64,000 bases of DNA. It comes from Ginglymostoma cirratum (taxonomy: Eukaryota). The notes below the pieces were generated by a model that was not told the origin of the DNA, made no database searches, and saw only the letters and a list, made by a program, of their open reading frames with translations. This document shows, piece by piece, positions 19,866 through 48,100 of this stretch. The DNA lies in NCBI GenBank assembly GCA_024137785.1, contig JAHRHZ010000013.1:12666707-12730706 (forward strand), in the 5' to 3' direction. How positions within the stretch are numbered: the first letter of the stretch is position 1; every line of letters starts with the position of its first letter. Made by a program: the position numbers and the translations under genes.

Positions 19866-22088
19866 CACAAATGTCATAAATATGTTTTTTTTTGTCAATA
19901 ATCAGCATAATACTATTGGTAGAAAAGCATAGCAATCAGCTTTTGGTATTTTTTTATATAGTTGAATGATTGGCTAGTCAATTTGGTTCCTTTACTTTTG
20001 CTTCTCGTTTGAACAAAGTTAATATTTTATTCATCCCCAAGAGTTTTGATTTAAACTGCATCTTTTACAGGCAAATTTGTCAGTTGCTCTTGAGAGAATC
20101 CTGATTACTCTACAGCTTTCCATTGCTCTTGTGCACAGATTTCAAATAATTCACAATTCATGAGTCTGCTCCACATTTCTGTCTTCAAGGCTATGTATCT
20201 TCAGTTATATCTATGGAAAAACAAAAGCTTAGTCTCTCCAGGGGAATCTCTCTCCTACTTTTTCTTTTGTGCTGAACACAAAGGTACGTTCTCAAATATT
20301 GTAGACTCAATATCTTTTCTTTACTGTAGTGAATGCACTTATTCCCTTCTGAGTCACAGTTTAGTTTGATGGTTACCAACCATCACTTCAAATAGCATTA
20401 CCCCTTGTCCCTCCCTTGTCAAGTTATCTGCTCATTGAAGAAAATTGTAATCAATGAAAGCCTGTTTTCTCAATTATAGTTCAATTACTTTTTAAAAGAA
20501 AATTCTGTTTAGTGTTGGGGTTTGTGGACATTTAGTTATCTTGTATTATTCTTTAGATTGTGGTGTTCTCTGGTCTTTGTAAATGTTGGCTCTGAACATT
20601 ACTAAATATCAGTGATGGTTCAGTTATAAGTACCTGCCAGTTACTAAAATATTGAGTGAACTGCTGCTCACCAAGTACTGACTCATTTGTTTTTGCAGTC
20701 TAGTTGGACTAATTTCTTCAGACTGTGAACTCACATATTTAAGAAACCAGCACAGCAGTATCATTTTTAACATTTTTTTTCTGCCTCCTAAATCTTAGGA
20801 AAAGATTAAAAAAGTTTGTTCCTATTCATAAAATATAGAGAGTCAGCCCCTGGATTCTTAGGATGTTTTAAAACATTAAAATCCTTGTTTTTCATCAGCA
20901 TCATATTGGTTAACCAACGCCTTACATTTCCTCTGTATTTATTATAAGGTAAGTAGCTGATTGTATTAGCAACATTTTGTCATATTTCTGAGAAATCGGT
21001 AAATAATTATCTTAGTAGGCAGTCTTGCCTCAAATGAAATTAGCATTGAAATTGTTTCTTTTATATTACGTCCACAAACTGGATGCTTCCTCTAAAAATG
21101 TATTTCTCGTGAGGATTTTATGCCGAGTTATATTGGTTTACTTGTTTAATTATTTTTATTTAGTTATTGTCATAAATTGAAAGCAGCGTGTTAATATGAA
21201 GCTGCATGTTTGAACAATTGCTGCTATGAGGATGGTCCAACTTTGTGGTCCAGCTATTAATTTATGCCACAATCAACTGGGTAACGTAATAATTTATTTC
21301 AATTGTTTTTGATGCTGCCAAACATACAGTTTTCACTATGTCACATTTTGGAAAATGTAATTGGAAATTCAGTTAGCAATTAATATTGCGCTCAATCATT
21401 TTTGAACTGATTAAGATCCAGGTTATTAGTGCTGGGGGCATTCAATGTTGGCAGTAAACAATCCAAAGTCAGGTAAACACAATCCTGTATAAAGTAAGCA
21501 CAGCTCAACAAAATGGGTAGAGTTGTTTGATTTTTTTTATGCATTGAAACATCATAAATATGAGGCTGGGTATTGCTCAAAAATAATGAAGTATTAATGA
21601 CACCCACAAGAATGTACAAATTTACCAGAAATTTAATGGATCAAGAGATAAATTCTGTTCAGGTCTTTCTATTCAATATGTGCTTCTCTTCTGATTGTTT
21701 CATATTAATATTTTGCCCTTAACCTTTATATTACTTTCAAGAACCTGCTAGATTTGCATATTAATTACCTGTTAAACCTAGCATAGACACTTAACTCTGG
21801 TTTTTAGTGTCATAGTTTTTAATACCATGATAAACATTCATGCAATAAGATCAACTTATCTATTTCAAAAATTATCATTCCTTCAATTGGAAACGGCTTT
21901 TATACATTTAACTTTTTTCAAATTTTCATTACTTTTGCTCAACCTCTCTTTTTTCTCTATGTGCCTCCTAATTGATAGTTCCCTTGCCCTCTTTTTCTTT
22001 TTGTAAATCATTTGACTTTAATTCACCTTCCTGTTCTGTCCTAATCTATTTCCTTCCCAATTCTCAAATCCAATTTATTCAGGAGCCA

Positions 22089-22282
22089 AGGTAGACAGAC
22101 GGGAGGCTGGAAGAACACAGCAAGTCAGGCAGCATCAAAACGAAAAGAGAAGTCAATTTTTCAGGCATTACCGTTATACGAAATATTCACTTCTCCTTTC
22201 CTCCAGATGCTGCCCGGCTTGCTGTGTTCTTCCAGTCTCCTGTTTTTCTACCTTGGATGCTGGCATCTGCGTTTTTTTTTTC
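22089..22282 (+). mobile_element. Penelope-like fold-back mini-insertion
   Basis: 12-bp TSD ATTCAGGAGCCA (22077-22088 / 22283-22294). ~50-bp inverted arms (22086-22136 vs 22206-22256). GCATCTGC tail. Confidence 0.8.
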
Positions 22283-22529
22283 ATTCAGGAGCCACACCGG
22301 TCCCAGCATTAACTAAAGTCCCACGTACCCTGTTTTAGCTCCAGCATGAAAATAGAATGTAAGTAAAATGAATATGAAATGTGTTGATCATTGAATCAAA
22401 AGGCATTAAAGCAAGGTGAACACTACAGACACTTTATTTATCCTTTAAAATGATTTTTTATTAATATTTGGCATAAAAGGAAAAGAAAGATTTACATTTA
22501 TACTTGCTTTTCACAACCCCTCCTCCCTT

Positions 22530-23005: not shown

Positions 23006-23411
23006 AAAAAGAACCTTGGCACTGCGGATGCTGAAAATCAGAGACAGAAACAGAAATCACTGGGAAATTGTTGTTTCTGATCTTAACTTCTGCCCCCATT
23101 TTATTGACATCAACTGTGTGTAATAATTTTGTTATTCCTTTAGTCCATGCTGTTTTCTATCCTATTTTGTTCCTACTTTTCTAATCAACCTGTTCAGAGA
23201 TGTTATTACACACCCCTGGAGCAGGTGGGACTTGAAGCGTCCTTTTGTAGAATGTGTCCTTAGTTCTTTCCTGATCTCTCATTTCCCTTCATCTGTGTTT
23301 ACTTAAAAGCTGTTACATCTATAACGCTGAGACCTTATGCTATCTCCTCTCTGACATCTCTCAACAGAATCTGTATGTTCTATCATAACCAAACAAACTT
23401 ATCCACTTTGA

Positions 23412-23608
23412 ACAAAAACAAAGTTGCTTGAGAAGTTCAGCAGGTCTGGCAGCATCTGTGAAGAAAAAAATCAGAGTTAACCTTTCAGGTCCGGTGACCC
23501 TTCCTCAGAACTCAGATTTTTTCTTCACAGATGCTGCCAGACCTGCTGAGCTTTTCCAGCAACTTTGTTTTTGTTCCTGATTTACAGCATCTGCAGTTCT
23601 TTTGGTTT
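23412..23608 (+). mobile_element. Penelope-like fold-back mini-insertion with hammerhead motif
   Basis: TSD TTATCCACTTTGA (23399-23411 / 23609-23621). ~62-bp inverted arms and a ~32-nt extra tail on the sense arm. Confidence 0.85.
23474..23513 (-). ncRNA. Minimal type I hammerhead ribozyme motif (degenerate stem III)
   Basis: Minus strand: GAGUU CUGAGGA A GGGUC-ACCG-GACCU GAAA GGUU AACUC. Stem I is GAGUU/AACUC and stem II is 5 bp. Confidence 0.6.
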
Positions 23609-26600
23609 TTATCCACTTTGATTTTGCCCAATTATTCAGAACCAATTTCTGTTGCAGTAGTGTTTAGCTTGCTTCTTTTTCTCAAAGTAAGAATTACTCC
23701 AGCAGATTCTTCTTTTAGTTTCATTCCAATAATGAGTATTGTTGATATAATAAGGTAACTGGTTTGGAAATGTTGTTGAGCCCAGGAACACAAGGAGGTT
23801 CAATTAACACACAAAGGCGAATGTGAAGCAACCTGAGTTAGCGATAACAGATGACCATTCAAATGCACTCTAAAGTCAGGATCAGTAGCCCTTTAGAATC
23901 ACTTCACCATTGTGTGACCAGCATTCATTATTTAAAAAGAATAAATTTTCAAACCGACTGTTAAAAAAAAATTGGTAGCCCTGTCACCTATAAATCAAAA
24001 GGCTGAGGGTTCCAGCCCAACTCTACAACACAAGCACATTGTCTTAGATGATACGGTAGCACAAAAATAAAGGACAGTCACATAGATGGAAGTATCATCC
24101 ATCAGCATGGATTTTAACCCAAGATCCTGTCTACTTGTCCTATTTCTACAGAAATTAAATGCCCTGTGGAGTCATTTAAGATGGAGGGAGCTCTCAAGCC
24201 CTCAAACAACACTATACGCAGATTAATTTCTTATTTATCTCATTGGCACTCTCGGGGATCCTGCTTTGTGTAAAATGGCTAACTACCCTGTTTGCCAGTA
24301 TAACATGATTTTCAGAAAATTTTTTTAATATTGAACTGTTTTGTAACGTTCGTGAGAGATATTTTTAGATGCAAACAAAAGTAAAAACTGTATTTCTGTT
24401 CAATATTTAATAGACCAGAAAACAATACCTTTCATGCAGCAAAGTGGACATCTCCATGCAGCATTCTAAGGTATTTGGGGGCATTGATCAGTCAGCTCCT
24501 TGCTTAGTCTGTTCCTTTATTGTCACCAAACCACAAAAGGCAACATGACTGATTCGAGTATAGCGAAGGAGTGCAATGAGTAAAGGTTAGAAAGCAGGAA
24601 GCAGTCCATGAAACAGTTAAGAAGACCCTGATCATAGAATGCAAAATATTGAATAGGTACAAATAAAAATACTCCTGGATATTCTTTCGAAGCAAGACCA
24701 GAAATTAACACCAAAAGGACTTAATTTCAATTGGTAAAAAGTAACTTAAAACATATTAGGATGAGTTTTATCTAATTATTGCTGATAGTGATAAAGAGAC
24801 CAAGAATAAATAAGATACTCAAACTCAGCTGGATTCTGTAATGGGACGGTAATGGCAAAACAGGCCTTTAACTTCCACAGCTTCTTACATTCTTCTGTGT
24901 AAATCATGATAGTGAGTGTTGTCACACTTTTCAGTGGTGGGAAATATTGCAATTCAGCATAATCTGTCCCCAACTAATGTTCCCATGCATGTTTTTCTTT
25001 GGAGAGCACAGAGTAACAATAAGCAGTGTAAAGGGCAGTCAATTTTCCTTTTTACTGGCAATGCTGCTGAGGCCAATTGAATGCTCCTAGTACGTTCTCA
25101 TCTTAGATCAGCTTATTCAGCACAGTGCAAGATCTACACTTAAAGCACATTCCTATTCTGGTGCATCAGATTCTTGCTGAATAACTTACAAGGTCACCTG
25201 AAGGGCAGTCCAGCCCTGAGAGCTTTGCTGACTGCAGCACAACGTGGTTCTGTCCTTCTGTAACCTGACAGCCAAAGGTACCCCGTAAGAAATGCATCGA
25301 GACCCTTCGAATTCACAGTACAATGACTACATGGGAAATGCCCAGTAGATTTAACCTTCCATGTGGCAGTTAGCCTGTGCTGAAACACTCTGGAAAATGT
25401 CTCCAGCTCTGAGTTGGAGTCAGACACCTCCAAGGATTCTGATCTACTAACTTGAAGAGGTAAAATCAATGCTAACTCCTGGGTAATTATGCAACTGGCA
25501 CCATCACCCACCCCATAAAGTAGACTATCCCTCCCAACTTGACTGGATCCGACCTCAGCACCCTACCCACACAGACACGCTGGCACCTCTCCAACCATTG
25601 GTAACCTACCTGTCTACCCAACTACTACTGTAACAGGTGCCACTGTGCCATCCTATGTAGCTGTCATGTCATCACCCTAACTAACTGACAATCTATGCAG
25701 CTGGCACCAAATTACAGTGGCCACCATGCCAGTCTGTCACCCTTCCAGCCATCTACCCTATCTTACTGGTGCTATATCCAGCTGTCATGCTATCACCCTA
25801 TACAGCTGACACCCTAACCAACCAGCACCTACTCCATTACCCATTTATCTCGCCCACCCCACCCACTAACAACTACACCTTCACCTACTCATTCATATAT
25901 TCATACAAATCCAATAAGAGCTTATGGGACATTGAAAGTTCATTTACTGCAACACATCAGCATGGCCTGTAAAATGCAGGTATGACCTGTCTCTCCTGGA
26001 GTTACCCAGTTTTTTTGCAGTTTTGGGAAAGAACCAACTTTGGAAGTCTGGCCTTATAAGACCAGCAGGTAAATGTGCAGTTAATTTCCTATGAATAGCA
26101 TCAATTGGAACAGTCCTGATAGTAATTGAAATGTTTAAGTCATTGTTTGAATTTCAATGTTTTTGCATTTATTTAGGGTAAAAATCATGGAGGATTATTC
26201 TAGTGAAGAAGGGAAGCCAGGAAGCTAATATAACATGCCTGTTTAACATGCCAAATATTTTCAAATCTAGGGTGGAATTTTCTCCTGCCTGTTGTGACAT
26301 GAGGAATAGTGAGAAAGGTGGGAGAGAACGATGGGAATTTATAAATCTGATTCTCATGGCTGAAAACAAATTCCTGATTTTCTCTTCAAGGTTTGAATTG
26401 TGAATTCAGAACCTTGAGCAGTGACTGCCTTATTTCTATACATTTCACTGAGAAGTAGATGCCTCAAATACCCAAGTTGTAGATCAGAGCAGGTAGCTGG
26501 GGCCTGCAACTCTCCAATGTTTTCCCCAGCCATCATCCAATTGCTTCTGCAGAATAATCTCCTTGTATGGTCTATAACCGTCATCCTTCTTGACATTTTG

Positions 26601-27750
26601 TCCGCCCAGCTTAGCACCAGTAAATCACCAGCCTCACTTCCTCAGCATCACAGCCCTTGGACCAACTCAGGCAACACTTCAACTCTTTGACCCTTTACTT
26701 TTGAGCTCAGGCACACCTCCAACGTAAATGCTTCTGCCACATGGTTTGCATGCAGGGACACACATGCATCTACAAAGGATGCATCTTATGGCTTTTAGCT
26801 TTGTTTCTCAGTGCTCACTCACTTTGCACTTATTTGGAGTTTGCTACTCTCTGTCCACGTCATATTGCTTTCTTAATGTGCACTCACTGACTTGCAGGTT
26901 GCCAGCTAGTGGCTAAGAAAGATTTCTTAGTGCACAGGGTCTCCAGTGCCTAGTCATAGGCTGCAATGCAAGCACTTTGTTTGAAGCAAATGGCAATCTG
27001 CGAAATTCAAAGAACCACATGGAATGATACAATACAGAAGAGGCACTTTGTCATCAAGTCTGTACTGACAAAAACTACTCTAAATCCACCCAAGTCCCAC
27101 TTCCCAACACTTGGCCTATGGCCTTGAATGTTCTGACATTTCTAGTGCTCATCCAAGTATTTTTTTAAAGGTTGTGAGGACTTACACCCCAACTACCCTC
27201 CCAGGCAGTGCATTCCAAAACCCATCAGCCACTGGGTGAAAAAGGTTTTCCTCAAATCCCCTAAAAGTCTTTTAGCTCTCACTTTAAAATTATACCCTCT
27301 TGTTAATGACCCTTCAACTAAGAGGAACACCTGCTATCTATCCAGTCCATGCCCAACATTATCCTATACATCTCAATCAGACCCTTCCTCAGCCTTCTCT
27401 AGTCCAAAGAAAACAACCCAAGCTTATCCAGCTACCAGCCCCTCTTAATGGGATTATAGTGGACTACACTAAATCAAGATGGTACTGTCCACAGTCAGTT
27501 AAAAGATTAAACTTATTCCAGTCCAAGGGACTGGTCATTGTCAGTCACAAACTTTATCCGACCAGACTCCAGACATTGGGCCATGGTGAATCTTGCATGT
27601 AGTGATTGTAACAAGGTAAGGCAGGTGGACCTCAGAGAATATGAGTTCCATGATTGGGACTGTTTACTCTGGTCCAATCAGGGAGCCCTGGCTGACAGAT
27701 ATAAACAGGAGTGTCAGAGAGGTTCTGTTCATACTGAGAGCTGGCTCTGA

Positions 27751-29679
27751 TTTTGATTCATTGCTGTCACATGTTCCCAGTGAAATATTTTGTTTTGAGT
27801 GCAGTATAGGCAGATCATAATATAGAAGGGCCTACAGATCATAGGGTGATTGAACAGAGTGAGGCATACAAAGTTTTAGCTGCACAGGAGGTGTGCAAAA
27901 GCAAAATCAACATTCCATTTGAAATTTAAGAGTTTCATTCAGCAGTCTAATAACAGCAGGGAAGAAGCTCTTCTTGAACCTGTTGGTGCATGTGTTTAAA
28001 TTTTCATATCTTTTACCTAACATAAGAGGTTGGAAGAGAATATAACTGGGGTGGCAGGGGTCTTTGATGATGTTGGGTGCCTTTCCATGGCAACGAGAAG
28101 TGTGAATGGAATCAATGGATGGAAAGTTGGCTTGAGTGATGGTATTGGCTGTATTCACAACTTCCTTTAGTTTCTTACGGTCCTGGGCAGAGCAGTTGCC
28201 ATTCCAAGCCATGATGCATCCACATAGAATGTTTCAATGGTGTATCTATGAAAGTTGGTGAGGGTCCTTATGGATGTGCCAAATTTCCTTAGCTTACTAA
28301 GGAAGAAGAGGCATTGTGTGCATTCTTGACTGTCGCATCTACATAGGTGGTCCAGGGCAGATTGTTGATTAAAGTCACTACTAGGAATTTGACGCTCTTG
28401 ACCCTCTCCACCTCAGCTCCATTGATGTAAATAGGGGTGTGTCCTCCTCATTTCTTCCTGAAGTCGATGATCAGCTGTTTAGTTTTGCTGACATTGAGAG
28501 AGAGATTGTTATCTTTGCACCACAACACCAAGCATTCTATCTCCTCCCCGTATTCTGACTCGTCATTGTTTGATATCCGGCCTACAACAATGGTGTTGTC
28601 AGCAAACTTATAAATGGAGTTTGGATGAAATTTGGGCACATAGTCATGTGTGTACAGGGAGTACAGAAAGGGGCTGAGTACACATTCTTGTGCAGCAATG
28701 GTGTTGACGATTATCGTGGAAGAGATGCTGTTGTCTATCTTGACTGATGGTAGTTTATGGGTCAGGAAGTTGAGGATCCAGTTGCAGAGGGTGAAGCAGA
28801 GACCTAAGTCATGGAGTTTGGAAATGAGTTTGTTTGGGATTACAGAGTTGGTAGGGCAGAGCTGTAGTTGATAGGTAGAAACCTGACGTAGCCATCCTTA
28901 TCCAGATGCTCCAGGGATGAGTATAGCGTTTGGGAAATGGCATCTAATATAGAGCTAATAGGTACTGCAGATGCTGGAGAATTCGAGATAACAAGGTGTG
29001 GAGCTGGATGAACACAGCAGGCCAAGCAGCATCATAGGAGCAGGAAAGCTTGATGCTGCTTGGCCTGCTGTGTTCATCCAGTTCCATACCTTTATATCTC
29101 TAACGTAGAGCTGTTGTGCTGGTAGGCAAATTGCAAGGGATTGAGGCAGGCTGAGAGGCTAGAATTGATGTGGTGCATGACCAACCTCTCAAAGCACTTC
29201 ATGATTATAGAGGTCAGAGTCGTTGAGGCATGTTGCATGTGCTTTCTTTTGTACTGGGATGATGGTGATCTTAGAATCATAGAGTCACAGAGACATACAC
29301 CATGGAAACAGACTCTTTTTTCCAAATCATCCATGCCGACCAGAACATCCTCTTCTTGGAACAGGTGGGAACTTCAGATTGTACCAAGGAGCTGTAGAAG
29401 ATGTCAGCAAAAACACCCTCCCAGCTGATCCACACAGGATATGAGTGCACGGCTGGAGACTTCATCTGGGCCAGTTGCTTTCCTTGGGTTCACTCTCATA
29501 GAGGCCGATCTGACGTCTGCAGCAGTAGCTGTGAGGGAACAGGTGCTTCCCGGGCTGTCGGGGCAAGTGATACTGTTCCACTGGCATTCTACTCTAACCA
29601 AGCATAAAAAGCATTGAGCAGATCAGGGATGGATGTGTTTTTGTTTGCTGTTCTGTTCTGCTTCATTTTGTATCCCATA
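27751..29679 (-). mobile_element. Decayed Rex1/Babar-type LINE 3' half
   Basis: ORF fragments [64 protein letters not shown] and TNRFKKSFFPAVIRLLN. Confidence 0.85.
28957..29098 (-). mobile_element. Penelope-like fold-back mini-insertion inside a Rex1-type RT
   Basis: 14-bp TSD TCTAATATAGAGCT / TCTAACGTAGAGCT (28943-28956 / 29099-29112, differing by a CpG decay). Inverted arms GCTGGATGAACACAGCAGGCCAAGCAGCATCA. Confidence 0.85.
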
Positions 29680-30934
29680 TGAGGAAGCTAGATCAATGTC
29701 AAGGACTTTCCATGCATAAATAAAGGGTGACTTGTTGATGGGATACCGGCCTGTATGGAGCTATTTCACTGTTGGTCAAATATTACCAGGCCAGGGATTA
29801 CAGGTACATCGGTCAGGGTGTTGTGAGACATCAGTCTGGCGGTGGGCAATGGTGAGCTGAGCTGTTGAGCCAATTCAGTGGGATGAGCCAAAGATGGCAA
29901 GTACTTCCATCTCGCTGGTCACAAGAGTCTGCAGAAATCCACCCAACAGCCCAGTTGTAGAACTATTGAGGTGAAGAGTGGAAAATTCACTTCAAGTCAT
30001 AGGAGACCAGGCACCATGAATCCGACCTGACAAACGCTGCAACTGAAAAGGGGAAGATTACATCCACAGTCACTATTGTAATGTCCAAACCAATTGATGA
30101 GACACCAATAGCAAAACACTGCCTTTGCCCTGGTTGGTCCCATATACCATCCTCGATAAGATAAATAGCATGACACTTAAGCTTTTTAAGCGAGGTCCTC
30201 AGACAATTCTGATGAAAAAATGTTATGAGTTGTCGCTGACATCTTGTAAATCTGTGTTAGAAAGTTCATGGATGAGATATAAGAATTATTTTCAAACACA
30301 ATAGTTTGGATCTTTTGATTCATAGATAGTCATTGCAGCAACGCACTCTGAAAGATGCCAAATGGGATCACTCAGGAGTTTGAACACATCAACTGTCCAA
30401 GAATTATCCAGGAAATTGAAATTTCTGATCAACAATTACCCTTTGTCTGGAGCCTTCGAAAAATTCTTTAACTCTGAGAGAGAGTTAGATGGTTCCAACT
30501 CAATTACCTGGTATTAGCCAGGAAATATTGAGGGACCACAATCTGCTCTAATTCCTGGGTAATTATAAAACTGACACCACCCCTCCTTGAGCTGACTTCC
30601 CAACATTCTGACCCGACAACCACCAAAACATACCTCACTGCCCTCCGACCAGACACAACACTCACCTCCAATTCAACACATCTCAACATATAACACCAAC
30701 ACCAACTTCACCACATGACTCCCTTAACCCACCCTATCCCCTCGAACTGTCAACCTATGCCCTCACCAAACTACTGACATATCCCCAAAATTACTGCCAC
30801 CCTCCTCATCCACTTACCTTCCAGCTTACTGCCCACCCAAGTGCTGCCTTAACCCTTTACCCACTTACTTGCCAATCTATCCCTTCATCTAAATGCCACC
30901 CTACACCCTCAACTAACTCTTACAGTGATTTTCC

Positions 30935-31240
30935 ATAGAAACATAGAAGATAGGAGCAGAAAGAGGCCACTTGGCCCTTTGAGCCTGCTCCACCATTCCT
31001 CACGATCATGGCTGATCATCCAACCCGGTAGCCTAATCCTGTTTTGATCCTATTTGCCCCAAGTACTACATCTAGCTGCCTCTTGAATACATTCAATGCT
31101 TTCGCATTAACTACTTCCTGTGATAATGAATTCCACATGCTCACCACTCTTTGGGTGAAGAAATATCTCCTCATCTCTGTCCTAAATGGTCTACCCCAAA
31201 TCCTCAAATTGTGACCTCTGGTTCTGGACACACCCACATT
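30935..31240 (-). mobile_element. CR1 LINE 3' end
   Basis: ORF SRTRGHNLRIWGRPFRTEMRRYFFTQRVVSMWNSL plus a (TTCTATG)n-type tail. Confidence 0.85.
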
Positions 31241-32269
31241 TGCTCTGTGTAACTTTTCAATGATGCATGGAACCTTGTTTAGTTACTGCAATACTGCATT
31301 TAGTGCATCGTGTGGCTTCAACCAGTGAGTCTATGCTTCAAGGATTCAGTTAGACTGAAGCTATGCTGCACATTTCGGAAGACTCCAACACAGAACTCAG
31401 GGACAGAAATCTGAAGCATGAATGCAGACTTAGATAACGGTGACTGGTGTTCTCAGAAGGTTTGGGCCAAAGTAGTCAGTCAATCTCAATCTGCAGGCGA
31501 ACACTGAAAGCTGAGCACAACTTTAAAACAATGTTTGATATCCTTAGCACTGACTTGTTATTGCTTTTCAGCTGGTCGCTGTTACGAGGGGCTGTTAAAT
31601 GAAGCACTACCCAGCAAAATGTCTTACAACCTCTTTAATAAGAATGAGCAGGTAATTTTATTTTCAATCAGCCTCTAAATGAATCCACTAGACAGCTGTT
31701 CCTAGTGTGCATTTCAGTCCCTTTACTGAGATGGCACTTTGTGCTACAGATGGTCCGAACCAGCAATGCAGCCTAAAACCTCAGTTTGATTAATTCTTTA
31801 GTTCCAAACTTATCTGGGAAAATGACACAGCGCACCCCCCAACCCACCCACCCCAGCCTCTCGACATTCAGGAATGTCAAATCTTCCCCGAAATACACAT
31901 TTCCTTTTTTAATTATTTCTGTTGCCAGGCCAAAGATGTCAGAACATAATTGAGGACAACACTAAATGCTACTATTTGATAGTAGTTATTTAATCTGGTG
32001 TGATGGATGGAATCTTACAAAATTAGCTCTTGGAGCAATAGAGGGGCAATTTCGTGATTGTGAGTCACTCTCCACATCTTAATGGTTATGGTTGTTCTTT
32101 CCCAGATCAAATGAAGCAGCAGGCCAGCTCTGGGTTCCCTCACCAATCAGCATGGACCAGTGGGATGACATCTCTGCTGCAGTGACAAAAGGCTTCAATT
32201 GACATGAAAGCCAGTCGCACTCTCAAAGGTAGAACTGTGAGCAGGAAGGAAAGAGAAAGAAGGTGGATG

Positions 32270-32445
32270 CAATATGCGCAAAAGGCTGACCCAAGCTTCA
32301 CAATCTCCTTCCTGAAGATAATGCTGCAAACTGACGGGGAAATCCTCTTCGAGATGATGGTAGGAGAAGACATCAACCTCACTAAGGAGGCTTGGGTTGA
32401 GATTCAAATGGTGGTGAACTACAACGCAGGGCCAGTGATGTAAAA
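32270..32445 (+). mobile_element. PIF/Harbinger Myb/SANT-like ORF relic
   Basis: ADPSFTISFLKIML..EILF....TKEAWVEIQMVVN resembles the AWxEIAxxVN trihelix motif. Confidence 0.4.
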
Positions 32446-33132
32446 TATTCAGTGAATTTCCTGAGGTGCAGCAAGTCTATAGCACTCAGCTGGCATCCAT
32501 CATTCTCTAATATCTGGCATCTGGATAGCACTCCTCTCACTGACATACTTTGCTGTCAAACATATTTCTTCCTCTTTTGCCTCCTCATGACATCTCCATC
32601 TCAACAGACAATGCTCACACTTATGTTCAACATTTTGGCCTCACACTCCAAGTTTTCACAATTATGGTCCTCAGATATTTTGTCTCCATACTCAGCAATC
32701 AGTTCACTTCTCACACTAGTAATTCTCTGCTTTCTCTTGTTGCAGATGACAGTCCATAATGCCAGGGAGAGGCAGAGAACTGGGACTGGAACTGGAGCCA
32801 TGATAACATTGTTTGGGGTGAAGGAAAATACCCAGGATACTGGCAGGTTGATGGCAGAGCAGGGTGTTGGCATTGGAAAGATTGGGTAGTCCAGAGACAT
32901 AGCGACAATGTTAGATTTTGCACAATCATTTGACACTTAGCTATCATTCATGTTGAAACAATGTCACCAAAGCATTAACTGTCATGCTAACTTGAACTCT
33001 ATTTACTCTACATGAAGTGCAAGTTATGTATTTCATCCCCCACAGATGCATTGGTGGAGTCAGTGCTGGAAATGAGGAACAAGGTCATGGACTCCTCAGA
33101 GAAGTACCAACACTCTGAGGAAATACTATCTT

Positions 33133-34600
33133 ATGGATAAATGCGAAGTACTGCATTTAGGTAAAACAAACAAGGACAGGACTTATACAGTTAATGGTGA
33201 GACCCAGGGTAGTGTTGTCAAACAGAGAGAACTAAGAGTTCAAGTACGTAGTTCGTTGAAAGTTGTGTCACAGGTAGAGAGGGTAGTTAAGAAGACATTT
33301 AGCATGCTTGCCTTCATTCCTTAGACTATTAAGTATAGGTTTGAGACATCATGTTAACGTTGTACAGGACATTGGTGAGGCCACTTCTGGAGTACTGCAT
33401 GCAGTTCTGGTTGCCTTGTTACAGAACTGAATTGGATTGAATTGAATTTATTGTCACATATGCTCAAATGAGCACAGTAAAAAGTTTATAAGTCACCACT
33501 TACAGCACCATCTCAGGTACAAATATACCTAGGTGCAATCCCTAATTACAGGACAAAGAAATGAAGAAAAAAAGGTTATATTATAGTCATTCACAGTATG
33601 CCCATAGGTCAGAAACAAACAAGAAGCGAAGTTAAAGAGACAAGCATCAGAGTCTCTCTCTTTCCGCAGCAGACCAGCACATGAGGCCTTTAAGTGGTCT
33701 AGCCACTGGCTACCACAATGCTCTGTGCTGTCACTATCCCCACTCTGCACGAGGCCGCTATTCCCCATCCGCACTAGGTCGCTGGCATCCCCATTCCAGC
33801 CGCTGGTCTCTAGCATCCCTCCCTCGGGTTGCTGGTGTTCCCACTCCAGCCACTGGTCGCTAGTGTACCCGCTCTGGCTGCCAGCATTACCTCTCCGGCT
33901 GCTGGAGTTCCCACTTTGGCTGCTAGCAACATGGCCAACTGCTGACCCCACTTTGGAGGCCAGGAGTCGAAGGCCAGGGCTGGGTGTCCGAGGCCAAGAG
34001 AAGGAAGGCGAGAGGGAGAAAAAAAAGAAGAATAGGTGGAACAGAGGAGCTCTAGCTGGAGCTTTCTACTCCACCACCATCTTACCAAAAGGATATTGTT
34101 AAATTGGAGAGTGTTCAGAAAAGATTTACCAGGATGTTGCTGGAACTGGAGGGTGTGAGTCATAAGGATAGGCTGGATAGACAGGGACCTTTTTTCACTG
34201 GAGCATAGGAGAGTGAGGGGTGACCTTATAGAGGTTTATAAACCCATGAAAGGCTTAGATAAAGTGAATAGCAAATGTCTTTTCCCTAAGGAGGGGAAGT
34301 TCAAGACCGGGGTCATATTTTTAACGGGAGAGAAGAAAGATTTAAAAGGGACCAGGGGGCAACATTTTACACAGAGGGCAGTTCATATGTGAAAGGAACT
34401 GCCAGAGGAAGTCATAGATGCGAGTACAGTTACATCATTTAAAAGACATTTGGATAAGTACAAAAAAAGAAAAGATTTAGAGGGATATGGGCCATATTCA
34501 GGCAAGCCAGGCTACTTTAGCTTGGGAAAGTTGTTTGGCATGAACTAGTTGGCCCGAAGGTTCTGTTGTGATGCTGTATGACTCTACAACACTATGACTC
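33133..34600 (+). mobile_element. CR1 LINE 3' end interrupted by a ~660-bp insertion
   Basis: Translates DKCEVLHLGKTN...RPLLEYCMQFW and resumes KDIVKLESVQKRFTRML after 34088. TATGACTCT tail repeats. Confidence 0.85.
33427..34087 (-). mobile_element. Short non-autonomous retroelement inserted in CR1
   Basis: Minus strand starts GGTAAGATGGTGGTGG and ends AATAAATTCAATTCAATCCAATTCA (poly(A) signal plus tandem tail). No credible ORF. Confidence 0.6.
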
Positions 34601-36397
34601 TTTAAGTCCAGTACCTTTTGTCGGAACCACCAATAGCTGGGAAAGTGAGGTATTTATGCTGATGATGGTGTGGAGTGAGTGAAAAGTGTACATGGGGACA
34701 GTCTGTCTGTGCATCAGACCATACACAGTGAATTTTTGGATTCTTGTCAAAGTTGTTTATTGTAAAACGTACTTTTGGAAATAACCTCTTCTTTGTCAGA
34801 ATGTTATATTCTTTCCACTTTCACCACAGAGACAGATAAAATCTGTTACAGTCATAAAGGGCTTACTGATAACATCCCACCTAGGCAATGAGGCTGATAA
34901 TTTTTGAGCAAATAATCTCCACCTCTTGAATTACTGAGTTTAGGAAAATCAAAGCTTCAGTCTTTTCTGATCTGACCTACAGGTAGGTCATTATTGACTA
35001 TAATGTGATGCTTTACCTTAGTTCTCAATCATACAATGTTTTTCTTCCCAAATTAGATATTTTTGTACTGTTTTCACTTTTGATATTTTAAGAAATAACC
35101 ATCTCAATCAATTACACTCAATTCGTTTCCAACAAATCCAAACATTAAACACAGAAAATTTCACATTAATGGAATGGTCTAACAGAATGTTTCAGTTCCT
35201 ATGAGTCTTTTCAAGTGTTTACTTTTTTCAATTTCCCATTGATGAACTCTCCAATTGTACCTCCCTTCCTTTATCACCAATTAACTGTTGTTGACAAGTA
35301 GCTTTTCTTCTTTCCAGATTTTGCTGCATTCTGCAAAGTAATGGAACAAATGCATGTGGTTAGTTTTGAGTCTGTGCTACCAATGCTTTTGCTAACTTGC
35401 TGCCTTGTCACCAATAGCACAAATTGGCAACTCAAACACACTTATCCCACCGAATAGATTTTTTTTGTTGATCTCAGGGAACAAAGTTTTTCTGTCTAAG
35501 CAGTTTGAATGGATCTCCCACAGCTGCCAAAAAAACAAAAGCCGCAATTATGACTCTCAGACATCTCTATATGCTGAAAGATTGCATCTGCACAAGTACT
35601 TATCTATTACTGCTGGAACTGTGGAATTTTTTTCACAATGTACCCGTGACAGATTCCATACTGGTGACGGGCAAGGCAAAATAGAAAAATACTTATCTGG
35701 AAAAATATCAAAAGAAAATTGCAAACACTGAATGCTGACTGTACGTTTCACACTACAGCTTCTGAAAAGGCTCCTTTTCCCTCAGCCTAGGATACCCCCC
35801 TACCGTGGACGTCCTGATGGGTCCATCCCATCATGCTTTACCTATTTCTCTCACAAATATGATAGGCTCCCTCTGTGCTGTTTTATCTTTAATTATTTCC
35901 AATTTTGCTGAGGGATTGCAGATGAAACATTAACTTGCATGCTTTCCTCACACACGCTGTTCTTTTCTTTGGCTCCACTTTTGATTTGAAACACTTCTCT
36001 ACACTTGAAGTGCATGACTGCTGCCAAATTAAGCTGGCTTTGGTGCAGGGAATCCAGCAACACTAATTGAAACAGCCTATAATCCTTATTATTATGTTTA
36101 TAGCAATTGACAGTCATTACATTCCCTCCCATAAAATAAGCTTTTTGATTATTGTCACAACCACATTTCCAAATCTTTTCTGTAGAATGTTCCAGGTACA
36201 TAAACACCATTAAATAGCTTATATATTATAGCAGCTGTCATGCGCAGACATATATGCTATTGTAATCAAATGATCCAGTAACCAATTATACTCTTGTAAT
36301 TTGTTTTGATAACCACATATGGTTTCTGATTGTTGTTGCTAGATGTACAAAAACTGGAAACTGCTCAGACAATATGAAATTGACTGACCTGTGGCAT

Positions 36398-36570
36398 CAG
36401 TAGATGCAGGTACAGTTACAACATTTAAAACATTTGGACAGGTTCGTGATTAGGAAAGGTTTAGAGGGATATGGGCCAAATGCAGGCAAATGGGACTAGT
36501 TTAGTTTGGTAAACTTGGACAGCAGGGACAGGTTGGACCAAAGGGTCTGTTTCTGTACTGTATGACTCTA
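36398..36570 (+). mobile_element. CR1 3' tail fragment
   Basis: Similar to 34415-34590 (GATATGGGCCA...CTGTATGACTCTA). Confidence 0.7.
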
Positions 36571-37817
36571 TAAGATGAAAACAGGAGAAAATGACATTCA
36601 TTCATGAGAGAAAATGGCTGTATTGGGACAACTGAGAGGTACAGATTCATAAAGTTCAACTAAAACCTTCATGCTATTATAAAGCATTCTACAATCCTCG
36701 TCTGCATTACACTTGCAATATAAGTCTCTCCATCAAGCATAATCCCAGAAAGAAGCAATAGCAGACTCCTGGAATGGAGAGTCTCATTTGTACATTGTGC
36801 AAACCTGGTGCTGTGTCAAACTGATTTTAAGAAGTGCCCACAGGAGTGTCACTTTGGCCAATTTCACACTTTTTATGCTCGTGTAGAACTGAAACAGAAT
36901 GAATTCACCCAGTGCACTCTCAAAGCATTTACATTTTAACTGCAGGAAAATGATATCTTCACAAATGTCTGCCGATTTGTGCAAAGCATTGCTTTACCAA
37001 TGAGACCCAAAGATTCATTTCCACATAGTCTATAATTCAAATTGCCCCATTCTAGATATCAGTTTGCAAAAGCGACTGTAAGAAATCGGTTTGTAATGTT
37101 ACCTCATATAAAGCTTGACAATAGGAAGCACAAGTTCCATAATAAATTTACATCCATTTTTTGCTTGTTACACAGAAGTGTGGCAGTTTGCTGTATGAAT
37201 GAGCTAATGTCAGTGGAATATCTTTCCTCATCTGTACCTGCCTCATGTTTATATCCCCGCAAACTTTGCAATTTGCTGTCAATAAGCTTGCCCTCAAAAG
37301 GCCTGACAGCCAGTCTCTCCTGAAGAATCACAAACAACCTCCACCATCCCAATCCCACTTACTTGATGTGTATATTGTTTCAAATAGAAAACACTTGCTG
37401 GAACATAAGAAGTAAGAGCAGGAGCGGACTATTTTGCCCCTTGACCCTGCTCTGCCTTTCATTTAGATCATGCTTGGCCTCCTATCTCTTTTGACAGTAT
37501 TCCCATCTCCCTAGACTTCCTTAGCATTCAAAAATCCACCAGTCTCTGAGTTTAATCTACTTAATGACTGAGCATCACATTCCTCTGGGATCAGAATTCT
37601 ATAAATTCAAAACCCATCGAGTGAAGAAATGTACCTGAGTCCCAAAGAGCCAACCTATTATTCTGAGACAGTGACCTCTAATTCTGGAGGTCACATCCTC
37701 TTGGTACCTAATGTGTCCCCCCACTGGAAGAAAAATGAAACTTTAAGTGAAGTCAGAGATAACAAGCATGGGGCTGGATGAACACAGCAGGTCAAGCAGC
37801 ATCATAGGAGCAGGAAA

Positions 37818-37851
37818 CTTGACGTTTCGGGCCTAAACCCTTCATCAGAAG
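37818..37851 (-). ncRNA. Minimal type I hammerhead ribozyme motif (intact core)
   Basis: Minus strand: CUU CUGAUGA A GGGU-UUAG-GCCC GAAA CGUC AAG. Canonical CUGAUGA/GAAA core, palindromic ACGU at stem III and a GUC cleavage triplet, as in PLE minimal hammerheads. Confidence 0.7.
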
Positions 37852-37860
37852 GGTTTAGGC

Positions 37861-38260
37861 NNNNNNNNNNNNNNNNNNNNNNNNNNNNNNNNNNNNNNNN
37901 NNNNNNNNNNNNNNNNNNNNNNNNNNNNNNNNNNNNNNNNNNNNNNNNNNNNNNNNNNNNNNNNNNNNNNNNNNNNNNNNNNNNNNNNNNNNNNNNNNNN
38001 NNNNNNNNNNNNNNNNNNNNNNNNNNNNNNNNNNNNNNNNNNNNNNNNNNNNNNNNNNNNNNNNNNNNNNNNNNNNNNNNNNNNNNNNNNNNNNNNNNNN
38101 NNNNNNNNNNNNNNNNNNNNNNNNNNNNNNNNNNNNNNNNNNNNNNNNNNNNNNNNNNNNNNNNNNNNNNNNNNNNNNNNNNNNNNNNNNNNNNNNNNNN
38201 NNNNNNNNNNNNNNNNNNNNNNNNNNNNNNNNNNNNNNNNNNNNNNNNNNNNNNNNNNNN
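37861..38260. other. Assembly gap (400 N)
   Basis: Run of N characters. Confidence 1.
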
Positions 38261-38834
38261 GATGCTGCTTGACCTGCTGTGTTCATCCAGCCCCATGCTT
38301 GTTATCTCGGATTCTCCAGCATCTGCAGTACCTTTTATCTCTTTAAGTGAAGTCATCTGTCATTCTGAGAAACTCTGGGGTGTACAGAACATGTCTATGC
38401 AATCTCTTCTCCTAGAACAGCCTCTTCATTCCAGGAATCAGTCCAGAACTTCCTCTTCCCCTTCTAAGATACAAATATCCTTCCTTAAAAACAAGGAGAC
38501 ATAAACTGCACAAAGTATTGTAGCTCTGATCTCACCAAGGCCTTCTATAATTGGAGGAAGATGTTCTTATTCCTGTACCGCAATCCCTCTGTAATAAAGA
38601 CTGGCATTGCATTTGCTTTCCCAATTGCTTGCTACATCTGCGTATTATTATGATTCATGTGCACGAATACAAATCACACTGAGTACTAATATTTCGCTGC
38701 CTCTCATCATAGAAAACTTTTCTGCTTCTCCGTTTTTCTTACCATGTGGGTAGTTTCAAAAAAGCCACTATTATATATCCCACTTGCCATATTTTTCCCC
38801 ATTCACTTAATCTGTCTAAATTATTTAACAATAA

Positions 38835-42551: not shown

Positions 42552-43245
42552 GAACATAGCATAAGAAATAGGAGCAAGAGGAGGCAATTCAGCCCTCAAG
42601 CCTGTTCCACCATGGCTGACCTTATCTTGGCCTCAACTCTCCTTTTTTGCCTGCCCTCCATACCCCTTCATCCTATTCCTAATTAAAAATCTGTCTAACG
42701 CCTCCTTAAATTTATTCAATATCCCAGCATCCAACACACACTACGATACTGAATTCCACAGATTCAGCACCCTTTAAGAGAAGTAACTTCTTCTCATTTC
42801 TGAAGAAGAGTCTCGACTCAAAACGTCAGCTTTCCTGCTCCTCTGATGCTGCTTGGCCTGCTGTGTTCATCCAGCCCCACACCTTGTTATGTCCTCATCT
42901 CTGTTTTAAACCTGCCATCCCTTACCCTAAAGCTGTGGCTTCTCATTCTAGATTGTCCCACGTGAGGAAACATCCCTTCTATGTCAACTTTGTCCATCTC
43001 CTTTAGAATCGCATATGCCTCAGTTAGGTCGCTTCTCATTCTTCTAAATGATTGATTGTATAAGCCTAAATTGCTCAATCTCTGTTCTTGAGACAAACTG
43101 CACATCTCTGGAATCAATCTTAGTGGATCTCCTCCGAATCATACAACTACATCCTTCCCCAAATAAAGGAACCAAAATTGTATGCAATAATCCAGGTACA
43201 GGCTCATTAATGCCTTTACAGTTACTATATATAAGCCTCTTACTT
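42552..43245 (-). mobile_element. CR1 3' fragment
   Basis: ORF EQRLSNLGLYNQSFRRMRSDLTEAYAILK...SRMRSHSFRVRDGRFKTEMR plus a CR1 tail. Confidence 0.8.
42800..42891 (+). mobile_element. Penelope-like pLTR fragment starting with a decayed hammerhead core
   Basis: CTGAAGA A GAGTC-TC-GACTC AAAA CGTC followed by the family body GATGCTGCTTGGCCTGCTGTGTTCATCCAG. Degenerate TSD TTCTCATTTC / TCCTCATCTC. Sits in a CR1 3' end. Confidence 0.75.
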
Positions 43246-44330
43246 TAATCTCTTTTATTTAATAACCACAATTTGACCAATTTTCATTTAGGATTAGTAT
43301 AATCATTGCTAGTTTGTAAGTAAGCAAGTTACGTTTACCATCGCTAATGTACTATAATTGTTGATGATCTTCTTTCTCAACCTGCATCAGTCAACTCACC
43401 CCTCAAATGTAGATCATTTATTTTGTTCCAATTCTTATTGCATTCAATAAGAAATTCAATCATATCGATACTGTTTAAGAAACTAGTTTATGACAAGGCT
43501 ATAAATTAGCCTTCTCTAAATGCACAGAACTCGCTCCAAAATAAACTGCTCTCTTATTTGTTTCTTGACATACTGAACCAGGAAATGATCCCAAACACAT
43601 TCCACTAACTTATACCCTAGAAAATTAAATTACTGAAAATTTGGTCTGCTCAGTGTTTTTGAAGATTTAATTACCCCATAATTTCTGCATTTAACTTTTT
43701 ACATGCAGCTTTAATTTAATCAAAAACAAGTCATATTTATGTTGCACCTTTGACGTAATAAAATATCCCAAGATATTATTCAGGAGTGTCATAGACCAAC
43801 ATTGACACCAAGCCCCTTAAGGAGAAATTGGAGCAGATGACCAAAACTTTTGTCAAAGAGGTAGCTTTAAATAATTCCCCAGAAAAAGGAAAACGAGGTA
43901 GAAATATGAGTAGGTTTAGAAGGGAAAGTCCAGAATAAAGAGAGTAGGCATCTTAAGCTATAACCACCAATGTTGTATTTCTGGGAAACAAGGGATGCAC
44001 AAGCAGCCGAAATTAGAGGAGAGCAGATATCTCAGATTACTGTGAAGCTGGAGAATGTTACAAAGGCAGGAAAGGTGAAAAAAAGGAAGGATTTAAAAGC
44101 AAGGTTGAGAACTTTAAAATGAGACAGTTGTCTAACCAGGATCAAGTGGTAGGTCAGCAGGCACAGCCGATAGGTGAACAGGAAATGGAGGAAGTTGGCA
44201 AGGTGCACATTGGAATAGTCAATTTTTTGCATAACAAAGCCAGGGATGGGTGCATCAGCAGCTGGCAAGCTGTGCTAGGAACCAAATCAGGCAATATTAC
44301 TGACATAGAAATAGTTGGTCAAAGTGATGG

Positions 44331-44506
44331 AACTTCTCCTCATTTCTGAAGAAGGGTCTCGACCCAAAACATCAGCTTTTCTGCTCCTCTGATGCTGCTT
44401 GGCCTGCTGTGTTCATCCAGCTCTACACCTTGTTATCTCCTCATCTCTGTTTTAAACCTGCCATCCCTTACCCTAAAGCTATGGCTTCTCTTTCTAGATT
44501 GTCCCA
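44331..44506 (+). repeat. 176-bp local copy of 42785-42960 (CR1 plus PLE junction)
   Basis: Aligns without gaps by eye with ~10 substitutions. Includes the hammerhead-like motif at 44346-44373. Confidence 0.9.
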
Positions 44507-44983: not shown

Positions 44984-45113
44984 TAAAACAAAGAACTGCG
45001 GATGTTGGAACACTGAAACATAAATAAAAATTGCTGAAGAAGTTCAGCAGGCTTGAGAACATTTTTGGAGAGGAAACAGAGTTAACATTTTGAGTCCAGT
45101 GACCCTTCTTCAG
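44984..45113 (-). mobile_element. Penelope-like pLTR fragment with decayed hammerhead core
   Basis: Minus strand CTGAAGA A GGGTC-ACTG-GACTC AAAA TGTT AACTCTG, ending in a GCAGTTCTTTG tail. Approximate TSD AGATAGATTTT / AGACAGATTTT. Confidence 0.7.
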
Positions 45114-48100
45114 ACAGATTTTAATGGCTTTCTTAAAGGAGGAAAGCACGGAAGAGAGGAGGAGAGACTTGGGAAGTGAATTCCAGCATGGAATCCAGCA
45201 GCTAAACATCTTGATCACCTCAACGAGACTGGGAGACGAAGAGTAGCAAGGGGCCAAGGACAGATCCTTGGAGAATACCAGACAGTGTGTGAGTGGGAAA
45301 CTGCAGCACTGGAGGTTATTCTTTGACTGTAAATTATGCGTAGAAAATAATAGAACCAGACATGTGCATTTTCAAACAGCTGGACAACCTGCAGAAGTGT
45401 CTGAGGTGAGTAGTATGGTCACCCCCATGTCAAAGAATGTAAATAGGTCGAGAGGGATGAGGTTTGCTAGTTTACCTTTGTCATACTCATTCAAGATATC
45501 ATTTACACCTTTCGTTCCACTTCTGTGATAGACAAGGAAGACTGATTGCGTGATTTCCTTATTTATACACTGCTTAACACTTCAAATACTATTAGGGGCA
45601 CATAAGCTACTCCCATTATTGTTTTCTTCCCCTTGTTGTTTATTAGATGCACCTAACTGGATTCTAAATCTTGACTTCCTGATCCAGGATCCACACTCTC
45701 AACAGATATTAGCCAATATTTTATTATCAAAACTACACCGTCTCCACTCTTTTCCATTTTCCATTTTTGTTTGAAGAGTAGGTATTCTGGAATGTTTAAT
45801 TCTGACTGGCCACTCAGCAATCACATCTGCAAAATGGTTTTTAGATCAAATCTATATATTTGTACGTGTGCTATGAACTCATCTATTTTGTAATGTGAAC
45901 TTTATGTATTCACATCTTTAATTTGTCAGCTTTTCCCTTACGTCCCCATCATTGCTAAAGCTCACAAAAGTCATCAAACATCTGTTCAATTCTCCAGCCC
46001 TTCCAACCACACGACTTGTTTTTTAAATCACATTGTTATTTTGTTTCTCTGCTCTATGTCTTCAACAACTCTTTCGTTGCTTATTAATTTTACATTTTCC
46101 TGAGTGCTCCCACATCTTTCCTTCATAATGAAAACAACCTATTGTGGTTTTATTCCAGATTTCCATTATACTGAGAAACCAAGTTAGTTACTTTCTCATA
46201 GTTTCAGGCCATGTGAACCATTATAAAGAAGTGTAGCTTCTCTCAGGTCACTCTTGAAGTCCAGTCTAAATACTGGTTGGCATCAAGATCTAGGAAAGCT
46301 ATTCAAGGAACCTTGTGCTTGGGTTAAACACTCATACACAGATAAAAGAAAAAAAATCTTTAGGATGTATGCCATTTACATGCAAACTATACATCATATT
46401 CAAGGTTCTGTTTGCTATAAGACCTCATCTTATTTAAAGGGGCACAGATTGGTTCCAATGATAAAATTTAAGACACTACTGAGATCTATTTCATAAATCC
46501 TGTGTTATAAAACTTTTGAATAAATTTTACAGATTGTCCTATGATTTTAAAATCAGCTGATTAGGTGTTTTATTGTATGTTAAATATTAGCATATGGCAA
46601 ATGAAGTTATTGCATTTGTTGTACCTAAATGGCATTCAAATTGTCTCAAATCGAAGGTCAGATGGATTTTTTTAAAAATAGGGCTTTTTTTTAACGACAG
46701 AACAGCAGGTCTGAAAAGTAGAAAATTAAGTCGACAAATGACAGTACAATTCAACATGCCAGAATCTTTCTTCTATGCAAGTACCATTGATCTGCACAAG
46801 AGCTTATTACACCACCAATACCTGTTCTTATTTTCTCCCTTCTGGTCCTGTATACACACAATTCTGCGACACACTGAAGAGGAGGAAAACGTCTTTTATT
46901 TTCGAGCAATAATTTTACAAAAAAAGGCAAAACAAGTGACTTTGATGTTATAGCTACTAAACGAGTCAGATTCCAAGTGTGAGCCGCATAACTGCGGTAC
47001 AGGCGCCAAACTGCAGCGAAACCGGTAGTTTACAAAGTGAAAACAAATAAGATCTCTCTTCTGAGTACAACGATCTACCGCAACCCAAAGCGAAACTTCC
47101 ACTGCTTTTGTTTAGCAATCAAGTCCCTGAACCGAAGACAGCACCCAAACAGGACACTAGAAGGACAATTATATAAGAATGATCAGACTACCTGGTCGCT
47201 TGGAGCCCATTCATAATTACCAGTGGCCTTACATTTTGAAACGCATATTTTTAAAATTAAATCTGCAGTTTTTGTGAGTGTATATTTATAGGTTTTTTTC
47301 CAAAGCACAATGTTGAGACATATAGAAAGCTGACATAAATAATATTTAAATGACAACTTTAATCAGGTTTGCACTTGTTATACATTTGTTGACAGGTCAT
47401 TAGTGGCATGTGTAATTTTCAAGAATGAAGCCAGCCTGATCTTCGTAATATTTTGATATTGTATTTTTATAAAATATTTTGAATTTTGTCGATTTGCTTA
47501 TTTAGTTATTCCACGTTTTGGCGGAAGAGTGCCGCATACAAGACCGAATTGGGCAGAATTATCAGCAGATTGCATCTCTGAGAAATTGGTATGTGCTGAA
47601 TATGGTGTATTTACTGGACAAGGTCGAATGACTTCCTTCTGCGGTGTAACCATTCCATGGTGCCGTCCACTGAAAGAGAGTGTGTACTATTCAAGCTGAA
47701 TCTCACCAAAAGTTTCTCATATTGTCGCGCGGTGATTCCAGCCTGAAATGTCGAACGTTTTCAAGTCCCGTTCTTTGATTTGCCTCCAGCTAACAAAGCG
47801 ACTATTGTTAAAAGGATGGGAATAACAAGTCCCTACGTTCGTCTATATTTATAATAAACTGTTTAGCACATTGCTGTTACCTCTCTCAAAAATTACAAAA
47901 ATTACAAACTTGAAGGAGAGTTGTACGATTGTAGAAAAGCTTTGATCATGAGATGTTCCTATCCTAAAGCTGCGACCATTGCTCTGTCATTAAAAGTGCA
48001 GACTGTGGATAAACTGAGAAGCAGCTCCAACGAAACGGTTCCCAGGTGTAGAATTTTACCGCAAGAATAGTTGATTTCCCGAGCCATTTCGCAATAAGAA

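Follow-up and report, generated by a model that had tools for sequence, protein, structure and literature searches.

Short repeats in a 64,000-nt stretch of the Ginglymostoma cirratum genome (contig C13; genome size 4.36 Gb; hereafter the window) raise the question of whether self-cleavage of a hammerhead ribozyme decides where copies of a Penelope-like element (PLE) begin. Four head-to-head repeats and three single copies lie at 22–46 kb of the window, and an earlier note on this DNA had proposed that their 5' ends and inversion points coincide with the hammerhead core or its cleavage site, the ribozyme defining the end of the RNA template or the point at which a hairpin arises. We find that the footprint is real and precise, but that it lies 30 nt from the predicted cut, at the 5' edge of the ribozyme, and that the cleavage idea is unsupported. 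The anatomy of PLEs is already known; a search of the literature gave no earlier description of the sharp 5' boundary.

Features of the repeats

Judged by their sequence features, the short repeats are 5'-truncated copies of a PLE predicted to encode a reverse transcriptase (RT) and a GIY-YIG endonuclease with a Neptune-type linker. The window holds three families: A (insertions at 23412 and 45113), B (28957, 37756 and 42800/44346) and C (22089). The short copies correspond to the last 100–135 nt of the element, i.e. a minimal type I hammerhead, about 65 nt, and an optional tail to about +100. Longer copies outside the window extend upstream into an open reading frame (ORF) with RT and GIY-YIG matches: at locus L126, a 433-aa open stretch 5' of a family B arm matches GIY-YIG (PF01541) with 22.9 bits (cut-off 22.6) and a partial RVT_1 domain (PF00078) with an E-value of 0.00065, which is under the family cut-off. 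Its translation contains, as read by eye, C-NHRK-C-YT-C (C-x4-C-x2-C), and a zinc-finger-like CX2-5CxxC linker between RT and endonuclease is a Neptune feature (PMC8557442). The ORF was checked in family B only, to which A and C are tied by the common ribozyme and 3' motifs. Other PLE features are present, namely 5'-truncated, inverted and partial-tandem insertions, with target-site duplications (TSDs) of 9–15 nt. Tandem units consisting of a pseudo-long terminal repeat (pseudo-LTR), 160–200 nt of body and a second pseudo-LTR were seen at L117:654-1204, L213:1099-1554 and L030:2174-2620; these short units look like non-LTR retrozyme units.

The minimal type I hammerhead is characterized by CUGANGA, an extra base before stem II, a G10.1-C11.1 pair, GAAA, a palindromic 15.2-16.2 and a helix I of 4–5 bp (PMC4209133), and these features are found in families A, B and C. 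Stem I comprises 4 bp in families A and C, with a compensatory change (AGTT/AACT vs AGTC/GACT); in family B it reads ATTT/AAGT in young copies and is reduced to 2–3 pairs in older ones. Among the window copies, the core is unchanged at 37756 only. An Rfam scan of the window gave no hammerhead match, and its microRNA matches to the window hairpins were all sub-threshold. Positions are hereafter counted from the cut predicted, by analogy, after GUH, +1 being the first base 3' of GUH; C3 of CUGA is at -28 (family B) or -30 (family A).

Copies end at the 5' edge of the ribozyme

To the 180 evenly spaced 10-kb stretches that were sampled, 76 of which were all N, we added 30 loci retrieved with a pattern from the 3' part and the flanks of 30 other loci. 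The 3' part served to detect arms, which were then aligned to real long copies; removal of duplicates reduced them from 421 to 406, and arms reaching N, the locus edge or the end of the reference were censored. The window copies, selected central matches and arms scoring below 60 were dropped, and the 30 top-ranking matches to the 23412 hairpin were excluded from all counts because they had been selected for hairpin shape (junctions vary even among these). This left 209 arms with 172 ends for family B and 111 arms with 109 ends for family A, i.e. 281 ends, and only 3 scored arms for family C; the sample contained 238 scored arms in 983,602 non-N bases. End positions are less exact in family A (median identity 0.84); detection is incomplete for very short arms.

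The histogram of breakpoints that the earlier note had proposed shows a strong peak at the ribozyme and thus refutes an even spread, but the peak is not at the cut. Indeed, the ribozyme as a whole does attract ends, 109/172 in family B and 72/109 in family A falling between +4 and C3-6, as the earlier note had it; the cut site does not, ends accumulating instead some 30 nt away, at the 5' edge. Only 5 ends in family B and 3 in family A are found 3 nt or less from the predicted cut (8/281, 2.8%), fewer than the 8.3 and 6.2 (about 14) expected from the flanks. By contrast, the 6 nt just 5' of C3 hold 61 ends in family B against 5.2 expected and 31 in family A against 4.9 (92/281 against about 10). 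The modal end is 3 nt before C3 in both families, which differ in local sequence. In family B, 35 of the 109 at-risk arms end at -31, with 11 more ends at -30 and 7 at -32; none was found at +1 (0/182 at-risk arms), at -1 or from -37 to -39. The corresponding end rate per base is 0.0040 from +5 to -5, 0.0718 from -26 to -35 and 0.0077 from -36 to -45. When only the evenly spaced regions are considered, 42 of 111 family B ends are at the edge and 3 at the cut (25 and 3 of 93 in family A), and the edge excess is also present in copies at least 92% alike.

The flanks of the ended copies are unrelated (22 copies compared), so that neither an upstream exon common to them nor a divergent subfamily explains the boundary, and several ended copies carry clean TSDs abutting their ends. 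An alternative cut at the CA before stem I was also discarded, inspection revealing no pairing partner.

Exact-match counts in the whole genome

In family B, exact matches with one fixed core were counted in disjoint classes: 14,638 of the 38,248 matches end at C3-3 or C3-4, and 23,510 read through. Matches with at least four T directly 5' of the core number 10,499, with read-through in only 100 of them, and the base preceding the T run is A in 4,848 and T in 3,505. Matches with three T and an A that do not read through amount to 2,071 + 2,168, the former preceded by G and the latter by A or T, which places G at about twice its background; G also precedes 6 of the 7 sampled family B ends at -32. 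In family A, 8,299 of 12,437 matches end at the edge (6,055 start with GTT without the A, a class that includes a few percent of point mutants, and 2,244 with it), and 4,138 read through.

The cut was counted in one family B subfamily, where 30,084 of 31,307 matches are intact, 842 lack the -1 base and 381 lack the -2 base. A small excess of ends at +1 is therefore possible; it would amount to 2.7% at most, a figure into which point mutations and apices at the AAGCTT palindrome also enter. The edge thus accounts for at least 38% genome-wide, against at most 2.7% at the cut (the latter in that one subfamily).

Two candidate marks of run-off were set aside. A cap-derived G was not counted, as the opposite arm likewise opens with AGAT (mini inverted arms were seen at L145 and L186) and family A has about one third G; non-templated T is strong in family B (about 53% of ends) but not in family A, so that it likely reflects slippage or pairing at the T run.

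That alignments simply stop at the conserved ribozyme, or that the assembler builds the junctions, has a probability next to nil. The ribozyme is the best-conserved part of the element, family A copies are only about 84% alike to the references and 400-N runs occur within inverted copies, all of which would fit such an artefact; but exact-match counts need no alignment, TSDs abut the ends, and raw reads and contigs of other runs give the same boundary. In polyA RNA, the depth of raw reads on a family B copy doubles across -31. In the contigs of two further runs, the top heterogeneous 5' loose end is at -31 (47 and 24 contigs), and 9 of the 13 strand-switch joints listed have one side at -35 to -31 (joints at +2/+3 in the read tables track a subfamily indel). 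Since these reads stem from transcribed or genomic copies, they confirm that the boundary exists but not that RNA starts there. RNA run X22 had too few reads.

In RNA run X21, the commonest difference between reads and genome was A>G (L126:3300-3700, L117:655-843; 41 places versus 8 for G>A), and at three A positions its frequency was about 10%, versus at most 1% in run X1. A-to-I editing of inverted PLE pairs possibly underlies this excess, which was observed in RNA reads.

Self-cleavage and the window junctions

The hypothesis that ribozyme self-cleavage sets the template's 5' end is extremely improbable. It was suggested by the window itself, where two of ten arm ends fit the cut, compared with 8/281 in the sample (P = 0.03 for at least two in ten, post hoc), and the 842 versus 381 matches leave room for the small excess at +1 mentioned above. 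However, copies that end at the boundary hold an intact core and keep the whole ribozyme, and the RNA that served as template was hence uncut. Moreover, Naiads, which are devoid of ribozyme, make the same inverted structures (PMC8557442), and ribozyme mutants of the Anolis PLE insert normally, with no RNA reads ending at the cut (PMC11167929). The position of the boundary thus practically rules out cleavage as what sets the template end.

As regards the individual window copies, the earlier note had placed several junctions accurately. At 23412, the sense arm does start at +1 and overlaps stem I. Stem I, however, starts at the cut by definition and provides the 4 nt of microhomology, so that this coincidence needs no cleavage: a cDNA ending at the 5' strand of stem I can pair at the cut position of 23412. 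The 28957 junction is also compatible with the cut; this insertion is without ribozyme core. The apex at 37756 does lie within the core or on its margin, but both arms end away from the cut, and the sense arm at 22089 does begin at CGAAA, which is not the cut either. The single copies at 42800 and 45113, said to begin at CTGA, actually start 2–5 nt upstream.

Head-to-head pairs are better read as two cDNAs

The 3' ends of copies cluster at two places, about +65/+66 and about +100, and loose 3' ends in the contigs of other runs are found at +66/+67 and +101/+102. We scored 59 head-to-head pairs (39 in family B and 20 in family A) for these two end types. The tail is on one arm only in 35/39 and 18/20 pairs, respectively (53/59), on both arms in 1/59, and it sits on the 5'-shorter arm in 32 of the 45 resolved pairs (P = 0.007). 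Junctions display an overlap of at least 1 nt in 15 cases, are blunt in 6 and contain filler in 38. An arm at the 5' edge is found in 35/59 pairs and an arm at the cut in 5/59; in the few pairs where both arms could be typed, 8 have both arms ended at the boundary, 2 are mixed and 2 have both arms through, numbers too small for a correlation between the two arms.

A fold-back copy cannot hold 3' sequence that its template lacks, and most pairs are therefore better read as two cDNAs: the head-to-head forms are likely to be two separately primed cDNAs joined together, one per priming site. Self-priming fold-back of a single strand through pairing of the ribozyme stems, which is both the reading given in PMC3846280 and the route favoured by the earlier note, is very improbable as the main source of hairpins. 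Although the junction overlaps and the neat geometry of 23412 and 37756 would suit it, the tail on the 5'-shorter arm could not be supplied by copying the longer one, both tails are seen together only once, filler predominates, and the stem I geometry is found at 1 of the 59 junctions. Mini inverted arms of 7–17 nt were noticed before seemingly single copies (L145:6375-6392, L186:9675), as if a second priming had aborted early.

Origin of the boundary

The explanation that we favour, and to which we give an even chance, is that RT primed in the pseudo-LTR runs off the 5' end of the RNA, this end likely being the place where transcription starts, at an initiator-like A which is at once the first base of stem I. 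The boundary is taken to be the RNA 5' end because its upstream side is sharp, because it is independent of stem I strength and because it lies one base from an initiator-like A in three families: families A, B and C all have a YYANWYY whose A is at C3-4 (the motif has 4 matches in 400 nt of the family B reference). In two subfamilies with a stem I of 2–3 pairs, 33 of the 50 and 20 of the 31 arms ended there, showing that it does not track stem I strength.

In such a scheme, polymerase II would start at the A at C3-4, and copying would usually stop one base short. As reported for a related PLE (PMC11167929), two internal priming sites would give the 3' ends at about +66 and +100, the protein nicking and extending both target strands. 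Priming in the upstream pseudo-LTR would yield copies of about 100–130 nt akin to strong-stop DNA, and priming in the downstream pseudo-LTR long copies. Inverted insertions would arise when each site primes one cDNA, the two being made from opposite target strands and then linked at their 3' ends through microhomology or filler DNA; in fixing the copy ends, the ribozyme would play no more than a bystander's part. The general form of this proposal, namely that the hammerhead is transcribed first in Neptune-type PLEs, that strong-stop-like cDNAs end at the RNA start and that two of them from opposite strands make the inverted forms, is more tentative. If true, it would account for the flood of solo pseudo-LTRs, offer a route to regenerate the 5' pseudo-LTR and make the ribozyme a 5'-end module rather than a template-processing cutter.

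Several observations weigh against run-off at an RNA start. The youngest subfamily, which has the best stem I, ended less often (6/19), and among the 4–5 copies in which the body is joined to an upstream pseudo-LTR, both of those reaching the boundary passed it (-40, -87). The modal end misses the proposed +1 A by one base, the three initiator-like matches sit in related families and in pyrimidine-rich DNA, and the signal of a cap-derived G is ambiguous. No peak of read begins or ends was seen in two raw RNA runs, which come from fragmented libraries and cannot show an RNA 5' end. The data come from a single genome, in which young hairpins are often interrupted by N runs. Finally, Penelope of D. 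virilis starts about 120 nt 5' of the ribozyme, and what maps to helix I in that element is the end of an intron (PMC2377424, PMC4209133).

The main rival is a roadblock, which we consider somewhat unlikely: the RNA would extend upstream, and RT would pause, and often drop off, on meeting the 5' limit of the ribozyme in its folded or protein-bound state, somewhat as at a telomerase template boundary. Consistent with this, the boundary falls on the 5' strand of stem I, ends become more frequent through the ribozyme with minor peaks at the stem II edges (8 ends at -20 and 6 at -11), about half of the copies pass the boundary, and the Anolis ribozyme is protein-assisted (PMC11167929). However, both stems have already been copied when the polymerase reaches the boundary, which is equal or stronger with a stem I of 2–3 bp, and the lowest-energy fold of young family B copies differs from the hammerhead fold. 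A processed 5' end is quite unlikely. A longer RNA would in that case be trimmed to C3-3 by a 5'-to-3' exonuclease halted at the protein-bound ribozyme, or by a splicing-linked event, which would account for the missing A and would recall the D. virilis intron that ends at helix I (PMC4209133); in families A and C, stem I is indeed directly preceded by a pyrimidine tract and CAG, but family B, which has the sharpest boundary, has CAT instead, and the ended copies have no upstream exon in common.

Comparison with known systems

If run-off at the RNA start holds, the short copies resemble retroviral strong-stop DNA, a short internally primed cDNA that runs off the RNA 5' end, except that here there is no tRNA primer and no integrase, and the short product is inserted as such. 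In L1 twin priming, two target-primed cDNAs joined by microhomology produce an inversion; these cDNAs cover different parts of one RNA, whereas both cover the same pseudo-LTR, from two fixed sites, in the present case.

A close likeness is with Poseidon PAc of Anolis carolinensis, which has a minimal hammerhead in the pseudo-LTR and two 3' ends about 34 nt (the tail) apart, and in which the cut is not the template end; in vitro, PAc RT starts at two internal places, and both target strands are nicked and extended (PMC11167929). Our families differ in their Neptune-type C-x4-C-x2-C linker, and the available part of the PAc account gives 3' priming sites but no fixed 5' boundary or tail pattern of inverted pairs. 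Inverted, 5'-truncated PLE insertions with head-to-head pseudo-LTRs, TSDs of about 9–15 nt, a tail at one end and an initiator-like motif in the pseudo-LTR have been described (PMC8557442 Fig. 2, PMC3846280). PMC3846280 reads the junction palindromes as self-priming, whereas here the tail is mostly on the shorter arm and most junctions contain filler; the one-tail rule connects the inverted structure with the pair of priming sites already known and speaks against that reading. Penelope of D. virilis similarly has a promoter and start inside the pseudo-LTR and a defined boundary where helix I begins on its 5' side, but this boundary is the 3' end of an intron, the start is upstream and the upstream copies are variably truncated (PMC2377424, PMC4209133). 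By contrast with R2, whose inserted copies start at the ribozyme cut (PMC6765202), the PLE copies studied here do not.

How tandem and inverted PLE ends form and what the hammerhead does are posed as open questions in PMC8557442 and PMC2377424. Neither twin priming in PLEs nor a 5' boundary fixed at the ribozyme came up in a literature search that left subscription papers and Repbase reports outside its scope; Fig. S2 of PMC11167929 (genomic coverage) may bear on novelty. A boundary that is one base sharp in many thousands of copies provides a fixed coordinate for rapid amplification of 5' cDNA ends (5' RACE) as well as for the in vitro system already available (PMC11167929).

The copies in the window and their surroundings

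Table 1. Arms, hammerhead and target-site duplications of the PLE copies in the window
Feature	Coordinates	Strand	Remarks
Family C head-to-head insertion	22089..22282		- arm to about -21; + arm from CGAAA 22179 (-9); filler between
TSD of 22089 insertion	22077-22088 / 22283-22294		12 nt
Family A arm without tail	23412..23512	-	-34 to about +68; contains whole minimal type I hammerhead
Predicted hammerhead	23475..23512	-	Stem I AGTT/AACT, CTGAGGA (C3 at 23508), extra A, stem II, GAAA, GGTT; predicted cut 23479/23478; position 15.2 is G; stems I and II by folding
Family A arm with tail	23509..23608	+	Starts at +1 (AACTC); 4-nt AACT overlap (stem I) with - arm
TSD of 23412 insertion	23399..23411 / 23609-23621		13 nt
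Family B arm with tail	28957..29053	-	Ends at TCAAG; 5' end at most 2 nt from predicted cut
Family B arm without tail	29051..29098	+	Starts at about +18; 3-nt TGA overlap (29051-29053) with - arm
TSD of 28957 insertion	28943-28956 / 29099-29112		12/14 identical
Family B arm without tail	37756..37850	-	Reaches -30; core intact; apex TTC-ATCA-GAA 37841-37850
Family B arm with tail	37848..38340	+	Starts at -23; interrupted by 400-N run 37861-38260, resumes at 38261
TSD of 37756 insertion	37741-37755 / 38341-38355		15 nt
Family B single arm	42795..42893	+	Starts 2-5 nt 5' of C3 (42800)
Family B single arm	44344..44439	+	Starts 2-5 nt 5' of C3 (44346)
TSD of 44346 insertion	44335-44343 / 44436-44444		TCTCCTCAT
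Family A single arm with tail	44985..45115	-	Starts 2 nt 5' of C3 (45113)

The 42800 and 44346 copies are a single insertion copied locally with its flanks (42776-42960 / 44322-44506, 185 nt, 93%). No PLE copies were found in the window beyond about 46 kb. Runs of N within the first 160 sampled regions were exactly 400 long in 10 of 17 internal cases, and such runs often separate two PLE arms, in the window (37861-38260) as at sampled loci, indicating that young hairpins are under-assembled.

The window also contains two homeoboxes, both on the - strand (53699-53869 and 59863-60039), which we take to resemble group 1 and group 2. Between them lies an Rfam match to HOTAIRM1_2 (57631-57842, + strand, E 1.7e-15), and the stretch is likely to be the HoxA1/HoxA2 end of a Hox cluster. 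Lastly, a further PLE remnant consisting of the tail only was noted at 23021-23057 (- strand), as was another repeat, present as two 175-nt copies (34415-34589 / 36401-36573) that are 75% alike.

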